A stretch of 39,464 nucleotides of DNA from an uncultured Candidatus Bathyarchaeia archaeon. GTDB lineage: Archaea > Thermoproteota > Bathyarchaeia > TCS64. The position numbers were made by a program, and so were the translations under genes. The notes beneath the pieces are model-generated. The model had not been told where the DNA came from. It searched no databases and saw only the letters and a list, made by a program, of their open reading frames with translations. Position 1 is the stretch's first letter. Each line of letters opens with the position of its first letter. The stretch spans positions 1 through 39,464 of the forward strand of contig CAZCKR010000001.1 of NCBI GenBank assembly GCA_964499305.1, in the 5' to 3' direction. Below are positions 33,212-39,464 of this stretch, piece by piece.

Positions 33212-33382
33212 CTCTAAGTGGCTCCGGTACCCATTAACCGGTTTTATAGGATATCGTTTGTGGAGCAAAGAAACGTACCCGGGTAACCTTCTACCGATAT
33301 AGATTCGTGGTCTGTTACGGTGGGCGGCTCGGGCTGACCAAATCGCTTAAATCGTTGTACCTGTCATTTTCTCGGTGTCCCG

Positions 33383-33499
33383 CCCGCCCTAGCTCAATGG
33401 CAGAGCATCCGGCTGTAGTCGTCGCCCCGCGGGGCGGTGGCGTTCAGGCCATGAGCAGACACCGGAGGGTTGCAGGTTCAACTCCTGCGGGCGGGACCA
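33383..33499 (+). tRNA. tRNA-Tyr(GUA) with a 42-nt intron after position 37 (33419-33460); CCA encoded
   Basis: Hand-folded cloverleaf: acceptor CCCGCCC/GGGCGGG (C1-G72, the archaeal Tyr identity pair), D stem GCTC/GAGC, anticodon stem TCCGG/CCGGA, loop CT-GTA-G[intron]A, T arm GCAGG-TTCAACT-CCTGC, discriminator A, CCA. Confidence 0.85.
33462..33499 (+). repeat. attL: 38-nt 3' half of tRNA-Tyr, repeated at 39285-39322
   Basis: CCGGAGGGTTGCAGGTTCAACTCCTGCGGGCGGGACCA matches 39285-39322 at 37 of 38 positions (G33472 vs A39295). Confidence 0.85.
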
Positions 33500-33584
33500 T
33501 CTTCTAGTCATCGAATCATCTGGGTTGTATTAACAATCCCTGATAAAACTTAGAGGAAGTCTGTATTCATTGACGTTTGGTAAA

Positions 33585-33598
33585 TGGTAGCCCGGAAG
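33585..33598. repeat. 14-nt direct repeat TGGTAGCCCGGAAG (3' end of tRNA-Gln, read on + strand), copy 1
   Basis: Exact second copy at 38580-38593. Together they bracket the tRNA-Gln body and both R-M genes. Confidence 0.55.
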
Positions 33599-33660
33599 AG
33601 ATTCGAACTCTTGACAGAGGCTCCAGAGGGCCCGATCCTTGACCGCTAGACGACCGGGCT
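33585..33660 (-). tRNA. tRNA-Gln(CUG), element-borne, weak stems and one anticodon-stem mismatch (possibly decaying)
   Basis: Reverse complement AGCCCGG-TC-GTCT-AGCGGTCAA-GGAT-C-GGGCC-CTCTGGA-GCCTC-TGTC-AAGAG-TTCGAAT-CTCTT-CCGGGCT-A-CCA. It has the archaeal Gln-type A1-U72. The D stem has two G-U pairs, the T stem is AT-rich, and positions 30:40 are C-C. Confidence 0.65.
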
Positions 33661-33769
33661 ACAGCACAACCAATGAAAATAAAGCGATAATACAAAGCAG
33701 TATAAGATGTGTTAAGACAGTTTACAGAGAGTTATAGAAAATAATTTGTATCTTATTTGCAATTAGATT

Positions 33770-33777
33770 CTAAATAT
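33770..33777 (+). promoter_or_regulatory. candidate TATA box (CTAAATAT) for the R-M operon
   Basis: About 20-27 nt upstream of the ATG at 33797, consistent with a leaderless transcript. The whole region is AT-rich, so specificity is low. Confidence 0.25.
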
Positions 33778-33796
33778 GGGAGCGTAACTTATCTTC

Positions 33797-36700
33797 ATGG
33801 CATTTGATAAAGGTAGAGAGTTCATTAGTTCTTTAATCGAATCGTTTGAAAAAAATCACTCAGATTATTTAAATGAATCATATAATGAGACTCAATTAAG
33901 AAATGATTTTCTCAATCCTTTTTTACGTGCCTTAGGCTGGGATATTGAAAATAGAGCGCAAAAAACACATTATTTGCGTGATGTAATTCAAGAATATGGA
34001 TTATTGGATGATGATTATCAATCCAATAAACGGCCTGATTATACAATTCGACGTAATGAAAAAAGAAAATTTTTTATTGAAGCTAAAAAACCCTCGGTTC
34101 ACATAGAATCTAATGCTGCTGCAGCCTTTCAGACCAGGCGTTATGGTTGGTCTGCACAACTACCGATTTCTGTACTCACAAACTTTGAATATTTAATAAT
34201 TTATAACTGCAGAACAAAACCTAATCAAAGCGACAACGAAAGACACTCTCGTTTTCGTGTCTATCACTACTCTGAATATCTAGAACAGTATGATGAAATC
34301 TATGAAATGTTGTCTTGCGAATCAATGTATTCTGGGGCTTTCGATGACAAATTCATCACGGATGAAATGCATCCCGATCAAGAAGAGTTCGATGAATATT
34401 TCCTTGAACAAATAGAGCGTTGGAGGTTGATGATTGCCTCAGATATTCACAGAAGCAATACACTGGATAGCCATGAATTAAATTATGTAGTTCAAAAATT
34501 AATCAATAGGTTATTATTTTTAAGAATATGCGAAGATAGGGATATTGAAAAATATGAGTTATTAAAAAATGTATCCGATTATGAAACACTAAAAAGGATA
34601 TTCATTGAGTCTGATGAACGTTATAATTCAGGAGTATTTGATTTAATAGAAGATAAATTAGTAAATGAGGTAGCAATAAATGATGAAACATTAATTTCTA
34701 TTTTTAATGAACTCTATTATCCTCATTGTCCTTATACATTTAGTGTTCTTGATGCTCATATTTTAGGAGAAATATATGAGGAGTTTTTAGGTAAATATAT
34801 AGATATTAAAGATGGAGAACTACAATTAATAGAAAAATCTGAAATAAGAGAATCTAAAGGAGTAGTTCCCACTCCAAAATATGTTGTTGATTATATAATT
34901 GAAAAGACCTTATTGCAATATGAGACTTTGAGCTATGATGATTTGATAAATAAAAAAATGATTGATATTTCATGTGGTTCAGGAGTTTTTCTATTATCCT
35001 TATTTGATCATATATGTGAATATTGTTTAAATTGGTTGATGAATGATGGAATTGAAAATCATCTAGATAAAGTGTATAGAGAATCTGAAGATAAGTATAT
35101 GTTAAAATTAAAAACAAAAACAGAAATTCTTACCAATACAATATTTGGTGTCGATATTGACGACCAGGCAGTTGAAGTTACCAGATTTGGCCTATTAATA
35201 AAACTGATTGAAAATGAATCAAAGGAAACTATTGATGGTTACATTCAAGAAATAAAAACAAAGGCATTACCTAACTTATATGACAATATTAAATGCGGGA
35301 ATAGTTTAGTTGATGATTCGTTTTATTCATTCGATAAGAGTGCAATAGGTTCTCATAAGATTATAAACTTAGTTAGGCCTTTCAATTGGGACAAAGAGTT
35401 TAAGGAAATAATGTCAAATGGAGGCTTTGATGTTATCGTTGGAAATCCTCCATACTTGAGAGTCCAACGTATGGAAGAGTACATCCCCCACGAGCATTCC
35501 TATTATAAAAGTAAACATTGTCCTTATTTGTCCAAACATAAAAGTGTAGACAAATATTACTACTTTTTCGAAAGAGGAATAGAATTATTAAAAGATGGAG
35601 GAAAACTAGGTTTTATTTCACCTCATAAATACTTAATTTTAGATGCTGCAGAGAAACTGAGATGTTTAATAGGTGATAATCATTATCTTAAACATATTAC
35701 TCATTTTCATACTGAACAAGTATTTAAGAAAAAGACTACTACTTATGTTGCTATAACAGTCTTAGAAAAAACCCATAATGAATATTTTGATGTATCTCAT
35801 GTTAGTGACCTTAGTCGCTGGATGAACAATAAAACTTCAACTATAGTAACTTATAGAAACGAAGATTATGGATGTAAATCTTGGGTATTCATAAAACCTG
35901 AGTTACAAACCTTTTTTGATGATCTCAGCGAACGTATTCCCATTAAACTTGAAGATGAGTGTGAGATTTTTGTTGGGCTTCAGACTAGTAAAGATCCAAT
36001 TTACATCCGCACCCCAATCGACCAAACTAAAGACCATATTATTATCCGAGATATTAACGATGACGAGTGGCAATGGGAAAAAGAAATACTGAAGCCCATG
36101 CTAAAAGATGTTACGTTAAGGCCCTTTGGACCTGTAGCACCAAATAGCTACGTTATTTTTCCTTATCATATTGAAGATGGTAAAGCTATAATTTATACAA
36201 TCGAAGAGATGCAGAATAGTTTTCCAGGAGTCTGGGCATATTTAACTAATCATCAGGAACTTTTAGAAAGTCGAAGTATTAATCCAGAGGGTACTCCCGA
36301 ATGGTATAGATTTGGCAGGTCTCAAAGTTTAACCAAGTTTAACACTCCAAAATTAATATGCACCACTTTGTCACTTGGTCCGAACTATGTTTATGACGTT
36401 GATAATAACTACATTACGGGTGGCGGAAATGGTCCATACTATGCCATCCGAATACTCAAAGGCAAATCACTTTCACTTCAATACATACATGCTGTTATTT
36501 CGAATCCAATTCTTGAAGCCTTTGTTAAGAAAGGGGCCAGTCATTTTAGGGGGGATTACTATTCTCATGGGAAGATGTACATAGCCAATATACCTCTATA
36601 TGTACCCGATCTTGAAAACCCTGCTGAGAAGGAGCTTTATGATAATATTATAGAGTTAGTCAACTCTCACTACATAACTGTTTCAAATTATTGTGGAGCG

Positions 36701-36832
36701 AGAACGCCATCTCGAAAAAGACTTTACAAAGATCAGATAATTGAGCAACGAAAAGAAATTGATCGTCTTGTGAATACCTTATATGGGTTCACGAATGATG
36801 ATATGAAGTTAGCAGAATCGTTGCTCATGTAG
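33797..36832 (+). CDS. type IIG restriction-modification enzyme (Eco57I-like): N-terminal PD-ExK nuclease + gamma-class N6-adenine MTase + C-terminal target-recognition domain
   Basis: HsdR_N-like nuclease block RPD81YTI...FFIE95AK97. Helical linker NRLLFLRICEDRDI. MTase motif X GVVPTPKYVVDYI, motif I IDISCGSGVFLL, and motif IV VGNPPY (aa 550-553, nt 35444-35455). TaqI-C-like TRD (WYRFGRSQ, YYSHGKMYI). Confidence 0.85.
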   Translation: MAFDKGREFISSLIESFEKNHSDYLNESYNETQLRNDFLNPFLRALGWDIENRAQKTHYLRDVIQEYGLLDDDYQSNKRPDYTIRRNEKRKFFIEAKKPSVHIESNAAAAFQTRRYGWSAQLPISVLTNFEYLIIYNCRTKPNQSDNERHSRFRVYHYSEYLEQYDEIYEMLSCESMYSGAFDDKFITDEMHPDQEEFDEYFLEQIERWRLMIASDIHRSNTLDSHELNYVVQKLINRLLFLRICEDRDIEKYELLKNVSDYETLKRIFIESDERYNSGVFDLIEDKLVNEVAINDETLISIFNELYYPHCPYTFSVLDAHILGEIYEEFLGKYIDIKDGELQLIEKSEIRESKGVVPTPKYVVDYIIEKTLLQYETLSYDDLINKKMIDISCGSGVFLLSLFDHICEYCLNWLMNDGIENHLDKVYRESEDKYMLKLKTKTEILTNTIFGVDIDDQAVEVTRFGLLIKLIENESKETIDGYIQEIKTKALPNLYDNIKCGNSLVDDSFYSFDKSAIGSHKIINLVRPFNWDKEFKEIMSNGGFDVIVGNPPYLRVQRMEEYIPHEHSYYKSKHCPYLSKHKSVDKYYYFFERGIELLKDGGKLGFISPHKYLILDAAEKLRCLIGDNHYLKHITHFHTEQVFKKKTTTYVAITVLEKTHNEYFDVSHVSDLSRWMNNKTSTIVTYRNEDYGCKSWVFIKPELQTFFDDLSERIPIKLEDECEIFVGLQTSKDPIYIRTPIDQTKDHIIIRDINDDEWQWEKEILKPMLKDVTLRPFGPVAPNSYVIFPYHIEDGKAIIYTIEEMQNSFPGVWAYLTNHQELLESRSINPEGTPEWYRFGRSQSLTKFNTPKLICTTLSLGPNYVYDVDNNYITGGGNGPYYAIRILKGKSLSLQYIHAVISNPILEAFVKKGASHFRGDYYSHGKMYIANIPLYVPDLENPAEKELYDNIIELVNSHYITVSNYCGARTPSRKRLYKDQIIEQRKEIDRLVNTLYGFTNDDMKLAESLLM

Positions 36833-36840
36833 GAGTCCTT

Positions 36841-38490
36841 ATGTCTGGCAAGGAAACGGAACAAAAACTACGTGGTGGGTATTACACTCCTAGAGAAATT
36901 ACTGATTTCATTTGTGACTGGGCGATTATCTCGGAAACTGATATAGTCCTGGAACCAAGTTGTGGCGACGGCAGATTTCTCGAATCAATAATAGAAAAGT
37001 TGCATTCTAAAGGATGTTCCATGGATAAAATATCAGAAAATGTTCATGCCGTTGAATTATATCCTAAAGAGGCAAAAAAAGCAGTTGATAATTTATTAAA
37101 GTTGGGTGTTCCTAATGCACAGGATATTGTAAAAGTCTCTGACTTTTTCTTATACTACGAGTCTGAAATAAACAAGACCCAGTTTGATGTTGTTGTGGGA
37201 AATCCTCCCTTTATCAGGTACCAAAATTTTCCAGTAGAGTATCGCGAACGTGCAATCCGTAATATGAAGAAACTAGGGCTAAATCCTAACAGATATACGA
37301 ATACGTGGGTTCCTTTTCTTGTACTTTCTATTGATCTTTTGAAGCCCGGTGGGCGAATTGGTATGATTATACCTGCTGAATTATTCCAGGTAGGATATGC
37401 ATCAGAAACTAGAGAATTTTTGAGTGCTCATCTTGACAACTTGACCATTATAATGTTTAAAAAACTGTTATTCAAATCAGTGCAACAAGAAGTTGTGCTG
37501 GTTCTCGGTGAAAAAAACCAGTCTCTTAATCCTAAAATTCGAATAGTTGAGTTTGAAAATCTCTATGATTTATCTAATTTTACTAATAGTAGGATTAATT
37601 TGAACTCACTAAATTTGAACGAATATAAACCATTAATCAAATCTGATGAAAAATGGACACAATATTTCCTTGATACTAGTGAAATTAAATTTCTAAATAA
37701 AATGAAAAAAAATCCTCATATAACATGGTCAAATGAATACTATGATGTTGATGTAGGGGTGGTTACTGGAAGAAATAATTTTTTTATTTTGAGTAAGGAT
37801 GAAGTTGAAGAAAAAGGACTTGAATCTGAGGTCATACAAATTGTGACTCGGTCCTCTCATCTCAAAGGTTTAATTTTCGAAAAAAATGATTTTATCGATA
37901 ATATTGAATCTGGTTATTCCTCTTATCTTTTTAGACCTTCTCCCATTAAGGGTCTTTCAGATTCTGCAGTTACGTATATTAAAGAAGGTGAAAAATCGAA
38001 TTACCATTTAGGGTATAAGTGTAGAATTAGGGATCCTTGGTATATTGTGCCAACTTTATGGGTTCCTGATGCATTTATGCTTCGGCAGGTCCATGATTTT
38101 CCCAAATTAATTGCGAATCAAACGAATGCCACATGTACGGATACAATTCATCGTGTAAAGTTCAAGAAAGAAACTCAGTTAACCATAATACCTGCTTTTA
38201 TGAATTCATTGACCTATGCATTTTCTGAAATCACTGGAAGGAGCTATGGAGGCGGTGTACTGACATTTGAACCAAGTGAAGCCGAACGTTTACCAATACC
38301 TAATAAAAACCACGATATCTTAGATATTGAAAAATCTGATGCCATTTTACGTACTCAAGGTATTGACGCTGTTCTCGATTATCATGATAATATTTTGCTT
38401 AAAAAGGGTCTTGGTATGAGTGATCCCGAGATATCAGTTCTAAGAGCCATTTGGCAAAAGTTACGTGATAGACGAATAAACCGAAAATAA
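36841..38490 (+). CDS. stand-alone N6-adenine DNA methyltransferase (Eco57I-M-like companion methylase)
   Basis: GGYYTP motif X, motif I LEPSCGDGRFL, motif IV VGNPPF (nt 37201-37212), and a C-terminal YGGGVLTFEPSEAERLPIP block typical of this MTase family. GGAG 8 nt upstream of the ATG and 8 nt after the upstream stop. Confidence 0.85.
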   Translation: MSGKETEQKLRGGYYTPREITDFICDWAIISETDIVLEPSCGDGRFLESIIEKLHSKGCSMDKISENVHAVELYPKEAKKAVDNLLKLGVPNAQDIVKVSDFFLYYESEINKTQFDVVVGNPPFIRYQNFPVEYRERAIRNMKKLGLNPNRYTNTWVPFLVLSIDLLKPGGRIGMIIPAELFQVGYASETREFLSAHLDNLTIIMFKKLLFKSVQQEVVLVLGEKNQSLNPKIRIVEFENLYDLSNFTNSRINLNSLNLNEYKPLIKSDEKWTQYFLDTSEIKFLNKMKKNPHITWSNEYYDVDVGVVTGRNNFFILSKDEVEEKGLESEVIQIVTRSSHLKGLIFEKNDFIDNIESGYSSYLFRPSPIKGLSDSAVTYIKEGEKSNYHLGYKCRIRDPWYIVPTLWVPDAFMLRQVHDFPKLIANQTNATCTDTIHRVKFKKETQLTIIPAFMNSLTYAFSEITGRSYGGGVLTFEPSEAERLPIPNKNHDILDIEKSDAILRTQGIDAVLDYHDNILLKKGLGMSDPEISVLRAIWQKLRDRRINRK

Positions 38491-38579
38491 TTACTTAAAT
38501 TTATAGTGTGCGCGAAACCGTTTAAGAACCCTCTTCCATTAAAAGAACCCATATAACAACCCTTTTCAGGAGATTTGGG

Positions 38580-38593
38580 TGGTAGCCCGGAAG
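38580..38593. repeat. 14-nt direct repeat TGGTAGCCCGGAAG, copy 2 (isolated tRNA-Gln 3'-end fragment)
   Basis: Exact match to 33585-33598. The flanking sequence is not tRNA-like. Confidence 0.55.
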
Positions 38594-38721
38594 GTACTAT
38601 ATTATCCAAGCCTCTACCAGATAATTAACTTAATCGAACCTTTTTCGAGTATCAATTCACTTTAAACCATCCCCTCGATTCATCAAACAGGTAACCCATT
38701 GACGCGCAACGGGGCACCGCC

Positions 38722-39269
38722 TTGAGGGGATACATCTTCACCGAGACCGAGCGAAAGATGCTGAGAAAATGGATCGAAAAAGGAGAGGAACCCAAGACAG
38801 CCACAGTGCTGTTCTCCAGAATGAGAAGAACCAAACCCACACTCATGGAGGACATCAAACTCTACTTAGACACGAGAAAACGCCTGGTCGCACAACATCG
38901 CTGGAGATTAAACGTACCCCACACCCTAATCACCAGACATCTAGAAGGACTCGCATCGACCCCCACCAGAAGAGAAGAACCTACATAGACAGGCTCGAAC
39001 AACTCTGGGCCCAGCTGGACACCATAATCACAGACCCGGAAACCGACCAGCGCACCCGCATCAAAGCCATGAACACCCTCATGCGCTGCCTCCAAATCGC
39101 CTACGGAATGGTAGAGGCAATCGAAATAGAGCAGATCGAGAAAGACATCAGGAAACTCGAAGAACAGGTAGCCCAAGAGGAGCACCTCGGGTACAAGCAA
39201 CCCGGAGACACACACACCCATAAAAAACCTCAAAGTTACCGCCCACTGTTACCAACACACAGACCATAA
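38722..39269 (+). pseudogene. frame-disrupted small element gene (two overlapping coding-like frames)
   Basis: Frame A (38722-38988) begins MRGYIFTETERKMLRKWIEKGEEPK... Frame B becomes protein-like only from about 38980 (YIDRLEQLWAQLDTIITDPETDQRTRIKAMNTLMRCLQIAYGMVEAIEIEQIEKDIRKLEEQ) and has no start codon there. This suggests one gene broken by a frameshift. Confidence 0.4.
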
Positions 39270-39284
39270 AACGAGAGGCAGCCC

Positions 39285-39322
39285 CGGAGGGTTACAGGTT
39301 CAACTCCTGCGGGCGGGACCAC
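39285..39322 (+). repeat. attR: displaced copy of the tRNA-Tyr 3' half
   Basis: CCGGAGGGTTACAGGTTCAACTCCTGCGGGCGGGACCA. No upstream tRNA 5' half. The A at 39295 would break the T stem. Confidence 0.85.
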
Positions 39323-39464
39323 TTCTCGCGGGTGTTCAAAACTCTAGTATTATAACTGGGATCACGTTCATTGTTCTCGGTATAGCTGTCTGGGGTGTGG
39401 ACGCTGAAGCACGGCTATCTGGTAGGCATATCGGTTCTTTTACTGTGCTCAGTGGTCGCGTTTG

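Follow-up and report, generated by a model that had tools for sequence, protein, structure and literature searches.

The stretch of DNA analysed here (the window) comprises the first 39,464 nt of the 56,691-nt contig C1 (CAZCKR010000001.1) from a metagenome-assembled genome (MAG) of an uncultured Bathyarchaeia archaeon, referred to as G000 (1.99 Mb, 205 contigs, 89% complete, 58.5% GC), and contains, near its right end, an island that starts at a tRNA-Tyr gene and carries a restriction-modification (R-M) system. The tRNA-Tyr(GTA) gene, which has an intron and lies on the forward strand at 33383-33499, was not detected by ARAGORN, and Rfam was used in its place (RF00005, 54.9 bits over 33383-33496); the CCA extends the gene to 33499 and the anticodon was read straight from the sequence. 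The last 38 nt of this gene (CCGGAGGGTTGCAGGTTCAACTCCTGCGGGCGGGACCA, 33462-33499) form one attachment site, attL, and a repeat search located a second copy on the same strand at 39284-39321, attR, which is a partial copy of the tRNA 3' half with a single mismatch (G33472 versus A39294, position 11 of the repeat). An earlier description of this DNA made from its letters alone, hereafter the sequence-only reading, had recognized this repeat and its one mismatch but had placed the second copy at 39285-39322, one nucleotide too far to the right; it had also reported CTTCT after both copies, which is indeed present, though with an offset of 1 nt owing to an extra T at attL (ACCA-T-CTTCT at attL, ACCA-CTTCT at attR).

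No 38-nt match of this kind was obtained in 100 dinucleotide-preserving shuffles (0 matches), and the two copies at this locus are the only ones in the 1.99-Mb assembly, which answers the suggestion that further copies be sought. A second complete tRNA-Tyr gene as the source of the repeat is excluded, as the second copy is not preceded by a tRNA 5' half and the tRNAs found by Rfam in the window are only this tRNA-Tyr and a tRNA-Gln. The GC content falls from 58-64% outside the repeats to 26-39% at about 33500-38500 and is 42-53% at 38500-39300, in agreement with the foreign base composition that had been claimed for the interval. The tRNA-Tyr gene is 91-100% identical across 22 species of the genus, and that of G000 is 100% identical to those of the sister species G021 and G023, in both of which the empty site that the sequence-only reading proposed to look for was found: in G023 the tRNA-Tyr gene is followed by CTTCTCGCGGGTGTTC, the 16 nt found downstream of attR in G000, and in G021 by TCTTCTAG plus GGTGTTCAAAAGTCTAGTATTATAACTGG, which match the attR flank of G000. 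In two further relatives (G013 and G003) tRNA-Tyr directly adjoins a 3-hydroxyisobutyrate-dehydrogenase-like gene, located in G000 at C1 41024-41930 and referred to below as the dehydrogenase gene. The repeat is a true att pair resulting from site-specific insertion at the tRNA-Tyr 3' half, and the proposal of integration into this half stands, the empty sites of G021 and G023 joining tRNA-Tyr to the very flank of attR. AT-rich DNA found after tRNA-Tyr in G010, G015, G024 and G019 was considered as a set of further inserts and rejected, as it consists of ordinary genes, including CODH/ACS, of species with lower GC content.

Between the att sites two parts were distinguished: a frame, consisting of 33500-33584 and 38594-39283 and having a GC content of 47-53%, and a cargo of 5.0 kb (33585-38593) with about 30% GC and boundaries of its own. 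On the forward strand the cargo encodes an intact type IIG R-M enzyme of the Eco57I type (1011 aa, 33797-36832) and an intact, separate M.Eco57I-like N6-adenine methyltransferase (549 aa, 36841-38490). The 1011-aa protein matches HSDR_N, N6_Mtase and Eco57I in Pfam at 2.4e-40 and REase_MTase_IIG in PADLOC with 982 bits over residues 9-1003 of 1011; for the 549-aa protein the matches are to M_Eco57I_C (1.3e-39) and N6_Mtase in Pfam and, over its full length, to MTase_II in PADLOC (609 bits). NPPY/NPPF and S-adenosylmethionine-binding motifs can be read in both translations, and a bifunctional enzyme with HSDR_N and Eco57I/N6_Mtase next to a methylase with M_Eco57I_C is the composition of an Eco57I-type system. 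The closest relative among 5.8 billion proteins is 48% identical and belongs to a mainly bacterial family; its contig contains an integrase 3 kb away and no tRNA. The pair may be presumed to act against incoming DNA by restriction and to stabilise the island through post-segregational killing, and this R-M cargo was seen only in the G000 population.

The left end of the cargo is a copy of tRNA-Gln(CTG) on the reverse strand (33585-33660; ARAGORN, and Rfam with 40.9 bits), which is 90-95% identical to the tRNA-Gln(CTG) genes of the genus, with a match that extends 10-13 nt into the upstream leader; further upstream, a TATA-like stretch resembles, by eye, that of canonical loci. Compared with the canonical gene two positions differ, giving a C30-C40 mismatch and one changed base in the variable loop, and the copy is, judging from this resemblance, of the genus's own type and not foreign. 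The canonical locus of G000 itself lies at the end of contig C65 (9401-9427), where the contig stops 27 nt into the tRNA. The 14-mer TGGTAGCCCGGAAG, the reverse complement of the 3' end of this tRNA, is present on the forward strand at 33585-33598 and again, as an exact repeat at the GC transition that marks the right boundary of the cargo, at 38580-38593; it was not matched in shuffles (0 matches). Along the orientation of tRNA-Gln, the partial copy comes first, followed by the cargo and then the full tRNA. This is the reverse of a normal insertion, and the simplest source of this topology, we infer, would be one crossover between a short matching site in the frame and a circle on which the tRNA-Gln gene was present in full.

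The left arm of the frame (E1L, 33500-33584, 85 nt) is non-coding and was delimited by homology to G002 (tRNA-Tyr locus on CAZGZR010000037.1), a species of the genus more distant than the sisters G021 and G023: over 86 nt (33500-33585) it is 81% identical to the stretch after tRNA-Tyr of G002, and this homology ends exactly where the tRNA-Gln 3' end starts. The right arm (E1R, 38594-39283, about 690 nt, forward strand), delimited by homology to G002 and to two metagenome contigs that reach only this arm (L085 and L086), includes a TATA-like promoter region and two open reading frames (ORFs), ORF-A at 38722-38988 and ORF-B, in the -1 frame, at about 38943-39269. These overlap by about 45 nt in what looks like a programmed -1 frameshift, and the two-frame layout is kept in eight loci, with both frames conserved across the overlap. 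The eight loci are the window and L071, L072, L073, L085, L086, L087 and L088. Between G000 and G002 the ratio of non-synonymous to synonymous substitution rates (dN/dS) is 0.4 for ORF-A and 0.1 for ORF-B, as opposed to values above 1 in the other reading frames, and by this measure ORF-A/B is under purifying selection.

A clue to the origin of the frame comes from the neighbourhood of ORF-A/B homologues, which in G018, G043, L072 and L073 sit between an ATPase-GNAT gene and a large terminase (TerL) gene, the homologous pair being located directly upstream of TerL in Bathyarchaeia proviral regions. The adjacent terminase matches Terminase_6N and phrog_2 (6.7e-28), and locus L072 also encodes, about 7-10 kb upstream, a portal protein and an HK97-type capsid protein. 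On a distant contig, L088, the first gene encountered after tRNA-Tyr is the ORF-A/B pair, beyond which the element extends further. Because of these two circumstances, homologues beside TerL and the tRNA-proximal position in L088, the frame is best read as what probably remains of an element that integrated at tRNA-Tyr and was a relative of head-tailed proviruses. A scan of viral contigs found no relative, and L088 was tried as an uninterrupted ancestor by aligning its tRNA-proximal 110 nt to the arms of the frame, without a clear result. The identification of ORF-A/B as a small terminase was also rejected, since it would have been based on gene position alone, with no match in Pfam, PHROG or structure.

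The same frame was found with other contents in other lineages. In G002, tRNA-Tyr is followed by 86 nt (the 81% match to 33500-33585), 3.16 kb of unrelated DNA with 22-34% GC, a 725-nt right arm that is 87.6% identical to 38602-39323 and includes a degenerate attR, and then the dehydrogenase gene; the unrelated DNA encodes a protein with AAA_15 and OLD-TOPRIM domains (AriA/Old/GajA-like in PADLOC), an HNH endonuclease and a KTSC protein. In L085 and L086 a right arm 90.5% identical to E1R is preceded by yet other DNA, in L086 with a 184-aa ORF of unknown kind, and is again followed by the dehydrogenase gene; look-ups for longer contigs of the L086 cargo gave nothing new. Cargo was therefore seen in four frames, in two of which (L085 and L086) only its right end is available. 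The inner left boundary is identical in G000 and G002 (...GGTAAAT), and the right cargo boundaries vary by 0-30 nt, all of them lying just upstream of the conserved TATA-like stretch before ORF-A. As the slot holds different cargo in different lineages, the frame appears to be a recurrent landing place for defence genes.

As regards the machinery of integration, Pfam and NCBIfam scans found no integrase family among the ORFs between the repeats, which are the type IIG enzyme, the methylase and small ORFs without a family. The SSV-type family PF16795 has no match anywhere in the G000 genome, and PF00589 has a single one, on contig C13, as part of another element at the RNase P RNA gene. No homologous ORF spans either att site as a split int gene of an SSV-type integration would, and a tRNA-Tyr-specific integrase was found neither in the MAG (89% complete) nor beside any frame. 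The absence of an integrase and of a split int gene asserted by the sequence-only reading is thus upheld, also by the genome-wide search that it had recommended. Homologues of TerL, portal and capsid proteins, as expected for a head-tailed provirus, are likewise missing from G000, and what is found, att sites on both sides with no recombination or transfer genes inside, corresponds to the make-up of a cis-mobilizable element (CIME).

Taken together, we consider it likely, with a probability of roughly 0.7, that 33500-39321 is a composite, non-autonomous integrated element, in which an R-M module was later nested in an older frame. In a first step, as the att pair and the empty sites show, an element inserted by site-specific recombination at the 3' half of tRNA-Tyr, the tRNA gene being rebuilt as attL and the 38-nt partial copy being left as attR. 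In a second step this element, presumably a relative of head-tailed proviruses, would have been reduced to the frame by the loss of its integrase and of most other parts, leaving a left arm of 85 nt and a right arm with a promoter, the conserved two-frame gene ORF-A/B and a short tail. In a third step, the anatomy of which is visible in the window while its mechanism may be proposed, a circular low-GC module carrying a complete tRNA-Gln gene and the Eco57I-type R-M pair would have recombined into the frame upstream of the ORF-A promoter, through a crossover between the 14 nt of the tRNA-Gln 3' end and a matching short site in the frame, resulting in the 14-nt direct repeat. The sequence-only reading had regarded the R-M system as retained by a decaying element; this part does not hold, as the R-M genes sit in a separate module of about 30% GC with its own boundaries, nested in a frame that elsewhere holds other cargo, and they are accordingly to be seen as a later arrival. 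The island is probably unable to move by itself today.

Several observations weigh against this history. Neither Pfam nor PHROG has a family that matches ORF-A/B, AlphaFold models ORF-A with a predicted local distance difference test (pLDDT) score of 65.7 and BFVD contains no structural match to this model, and the viral origin of the frame would rest on the neighbourhood of one gene in other genomes. For the reversed topology the incoming circle must have contained the tRNA-Gln gene in full, and the searches yielded neither such a circle or donor nor a pre-insertion frame with an intact 14-nt site. At the cargo junction of L085 just the last 6 nt of the 14-nt repeat are kept, and G002 and L086 break 8-30 nt away from it; instead of being a defined att site, the slot may thus be a place where illegitimate exchange occurs.

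Elements bounded by att sites at RNA genes are also found elsewhere in the genus. At the tRNA-Gln gene itself, a module of 2.2 kb that includes an MmgE/PrpD gene is enclosed, on contig C169 of G009 (L080), by the full tRNA gene in front and a partial copy of its 3' end behind. On contig C67 of G018 (L081) the same arrangement encloses 5 kb of low-GC DNA encoding a TIR-domain protein, and the two modules have a common conserved arm beside the partial copy; no integrase family was found among the ORFs scanned in them, and all PF00589 matches of G018 are on other contigs. In G023 (C50, L036) a scar remains, a partial copy CTTCCGGGCTACC located 10 nt after tRNA-Gln. It was also observed that tRNA-Gln lies at contig ends in many relatives, and these ends and the G023 partial copy point to an integration hotspot. 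G002 possesses, at tRNA-Arg(CCT), a 4.6-kb low-GC element resembling an integrative plasmid (C2:54486-59185; L092 4486-9185), with a 28-nt att repeat, a tyrosine integrase beside attL, a CcdA-like gene and a rolling-circle Rep. In G000, a repeat of about 42 nt from the archaeal RNase P RNA 3' end occurs in four copies that bound a tandem array (C13:5500-12600, L094), consisting of a 3.9-kb low-GC element, whose integrase has its start codon inside the repeat and which includes RNase III-like and MauJ-like genes, a 2.3-kb integrase-less module (MFS and EVE genes) and a 182-nt remnant. From the cases at RNase P RNA, tRNA-Arg and tRNA-Gln, accretion and decay at RNA-gene att sites appear to be common in this lineage.

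Such modules, one of which adjoins an integrase-bearing element in G000 itself, are part of the case for an alternative which we regard as unlikely, namely that the island is a still-mobile, helper-dependent element, similar to a CIME or a satellite, moved in trans by the integrase of a related element, with ORF-A/B possibly hijacking packaging. The distribution of the frame is patchy: G000, G002, L085 and L086 have it and G021, G023, G013 and G003 do not, and in the grouping based on the dehydrogenase gene G000 falls together with G021, G023 and G013, the second group consisting of G003, L085, L086 and G002. The attR of G000 is nearly perfect (1 mismatch out of 38, compared to 11 in G002, 5 in L085 and 4 in L086) and lacks three changes (TT to CC, T to C and G to A) that the attRs of the second group have in common, a pattern which weighs against a single ancient insertion. 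Two explanations may apply: frames that had been reduced beforehand and had a common inner left boundary could have integrated on separate occasions, for which help in trans would have been needed, or the attR of G000 could have undergone gene conversion by the tRNA gene. The low dN/dS of ORF-B (0.1) and the position of its homologues before TerL also speak for this alternative; on the other hand, as described above, no tRNA-Tyr-specific integrase was detected in the MAG or beside the frames, and G000 has no TerL, portal or capsid homologue. The synonymous divergence of ORF-A/B, 0.12-0.37, is about half that of the host dehydrogenase gene for the same pairs and has the same rank order, as vertical descent predicts, and this pattern fits a long co-divergence with the host. 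The higher identity of the frame compared to the host flanks (87.6% versus 80.7%) was considered as a sign of recent transfer and rejected, since purifying selection accounts for it and synonymous divergence tracks that of host genes. A more far-reaching version, to which we likewise give little credence, would have the frame, with its att sites, promoter and ORF-A/B, not as debris but as a maintained, helper-dependent and satellite-like platform that captures defence cassettes in the form of circles, the tRNA gene of each circle serving as recombination site, is moved between Bathyarchaeia species in trans by the integrases of small integrative plasmids or proviruses, and acts through ORF-A/B, expressed by conserved -1 frameshifting, on the packaging of a helper virus.

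It is quite improbable that a composite history is unnecessary and that simple decay took place in situ, with one R-M-carrying element inserted at tRNA-Tyr, its integrase deleted and its R-M genes kept. This would account for an att pair without a detectable integrase, and the nearest R-M homologue, at 48% identity, does lie 3 kb from an integrase, but it leaves unexplained why the R-M block has about 30% GC as opposed to 47-53% in the arms, why it is delimited by tRNA-Gln and the 14-nt repeat, why the same arms carry unrelated cargo in G002, L085 and L086, and why these arms diverge in step with host genes when the R-M cargo occurs in this population only. Finally, three contigs from other samples match C1 with an identity of 99.93-99.98%: JGI 3300008517 (L078) over 33381-39413, JGI 3300028837 (L079) over 33362-38947 and Logan SRR3095939 (L077) over 33695-39464, the junctions from tRNA-Tyr through E1L and tRNA-Gln to the R-M genes being spanned by L078 and L079, and those from the cargo through E1R to attR by L078 and L077. 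An assembly artefact, in which low-GC DNA of another organism was joined via shared tRNA sequence, is therefore hardly credible even though tRNA genes are typical chimera points and the canonical tRNA-Gln breaks off at the end of C65, since each junction is contained within single contigs of these independent assemblies, so that a chimera peculiar to this MAG is excluded, since two positions distinguish the tRNA-Gln copy from the canonical type, and since the layout of frame plus cargo recurs in G002 and L086.

A composite element of this kind, with a nested R-M module, can be compared to several known systems. The Eco57I system consists of a bifunctional type IIG enzyme and a separate methylase, and the island pair has the same order, an enzyme of about 1000 aa with an HSDR_N nuclease, an N6_Mtase/Eco57I part and a specificity part, followed by an M_Eco57I_C enzyme of about 550 aa; it differs in its archaeal host and in the 48% identity of its nearest database relative, the assignment being made from sequence. 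In Haemophilus phage HP1 the phage att region contains a whole tRNA gene, and a circle with a complete tRNA gene recombining via its 3' end in a similar manner would give the tRNA-Gln arrangement, although the target here is a 14-nt site inside another element instead of a host tRNA gene, with no linked integrase. For P2/P4 of E. coli, Rousset and colleagues reportedly described in 2022 defence hotspots that are located within prophages and satellites. Likeness to these, and to the defence islands at integration hotspots of E. coli (PMC10121019), consists in conserved flanks with different defence systems per genome, the frame being occupied in one case by a type IIG R-M system, in another by an OLD-family nuclease together with an HNH protein, and otherwise by unknown genes; unlike in P2/P4, the flanks are an integrase-less shell of less than 800 nt at an archaeal tRNA gene.

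CIMEs and tandem accretion at att sites are known from the ICESt1/ICESt3 family of streptococci (PMC5704250, PMC7563491). The island resembles a CIME in being a segment between attL and attR with cargo and without recombination genes of its own; it differs in being archaeal, in its position at a tRNA-Tyr 3' half, in its likely derivation from a virus-like element and in having a second, nested att-bounded module, and also in that no autonomous partner adjoins it, its mobilisation being only a candidate. Among archaea, Thaumarchaeota are known to contain cryptic integrated elements that include R-M genes, and also arrays at a single att site (PMC6563490), and from Bathyarchaeia head-tailed proviruses have been described that possess an integrase, direct repeats and a tRNA (PMC11705971, PMC10848311). 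As in tRNA insertions of archaea made by tyrosine integrases of the SSV and pNOB8 types, a direct repeat of the tRNA 3' part surrounds DNA of foreign composition, here with R-M cargo, yet the island has neither a whole nor a split integrase and no replication or structural genes, and compared to archaeal proviruses just one gene of the presumed viral ancestor is left. What is distinct here is the combination of a frame of less than 800 nt with one gene apparently under selection, a nested cassette with its own complete tRNA gene, and an archaeal host.

Bathyarchaeia are a very abundant uncultured archaeal class, in which integrated elements and defence islands have barely been described, and this locus provides a concrete case of the entry and turnover of foreign defence genes in them, in the form of a tiny, apparently long-lived, integrase-less shell at a tRNA gene with different defence cargo per lineage. 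The small integrative plasmids of the genus could supply a recombinase. If mobilisation in trans does occur, the concepts of CIMEs and satellites would be extended to archaea; if it does not, the locus would be a documented case of nested decay and accretion, which calls for caution with island predictors that require an integrase.

Further observations concern the right end of the island and the DNA beyond it. A short motif on the forward strand between ORF-B and attR (AAAGTTACCGCCCACTGTTACCA, 39232-39254) recurs in the genus, where tRNA-Leu(TAG) and other tRNA-like genes have its reverse complement, followed by a T run, directly after their 3' ends (L060-L070, L092 and L093); here it is an inverted copy 29 nt before attR. 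The motif was considered as an element end and rejected, as elsewhere it lies just downstream of host tRNA genes. After attR, a 545-aa ORF that starts in the window (C1 39397-41034) has no match in Pfam, PHROG or PADLOC. In the SRR3095939 contig the same ORF has 682 aa, with 647 nt replacing about 100 nt of C1, and look-ups for longer contigs of this variant gave nothing new. G021 has a homologue that is 60% identical with a longer open frame, G023 a C-terminal remnant, and G013, G003 and G002 lack it, so that the ORF (L077, L048, L039) represents a second variable segment beside tRNA-Tyr. The dehydrogenase gene next to it (C1 41024-41930; L003 2625-3531) is split in C1 into two overlapping ORFs of 160 and 254 aa, either by a frameshift or by an assembly error; in relatives it is a single ORF of 295 aa, and in the SRR3095939 contig one of 284 aa.

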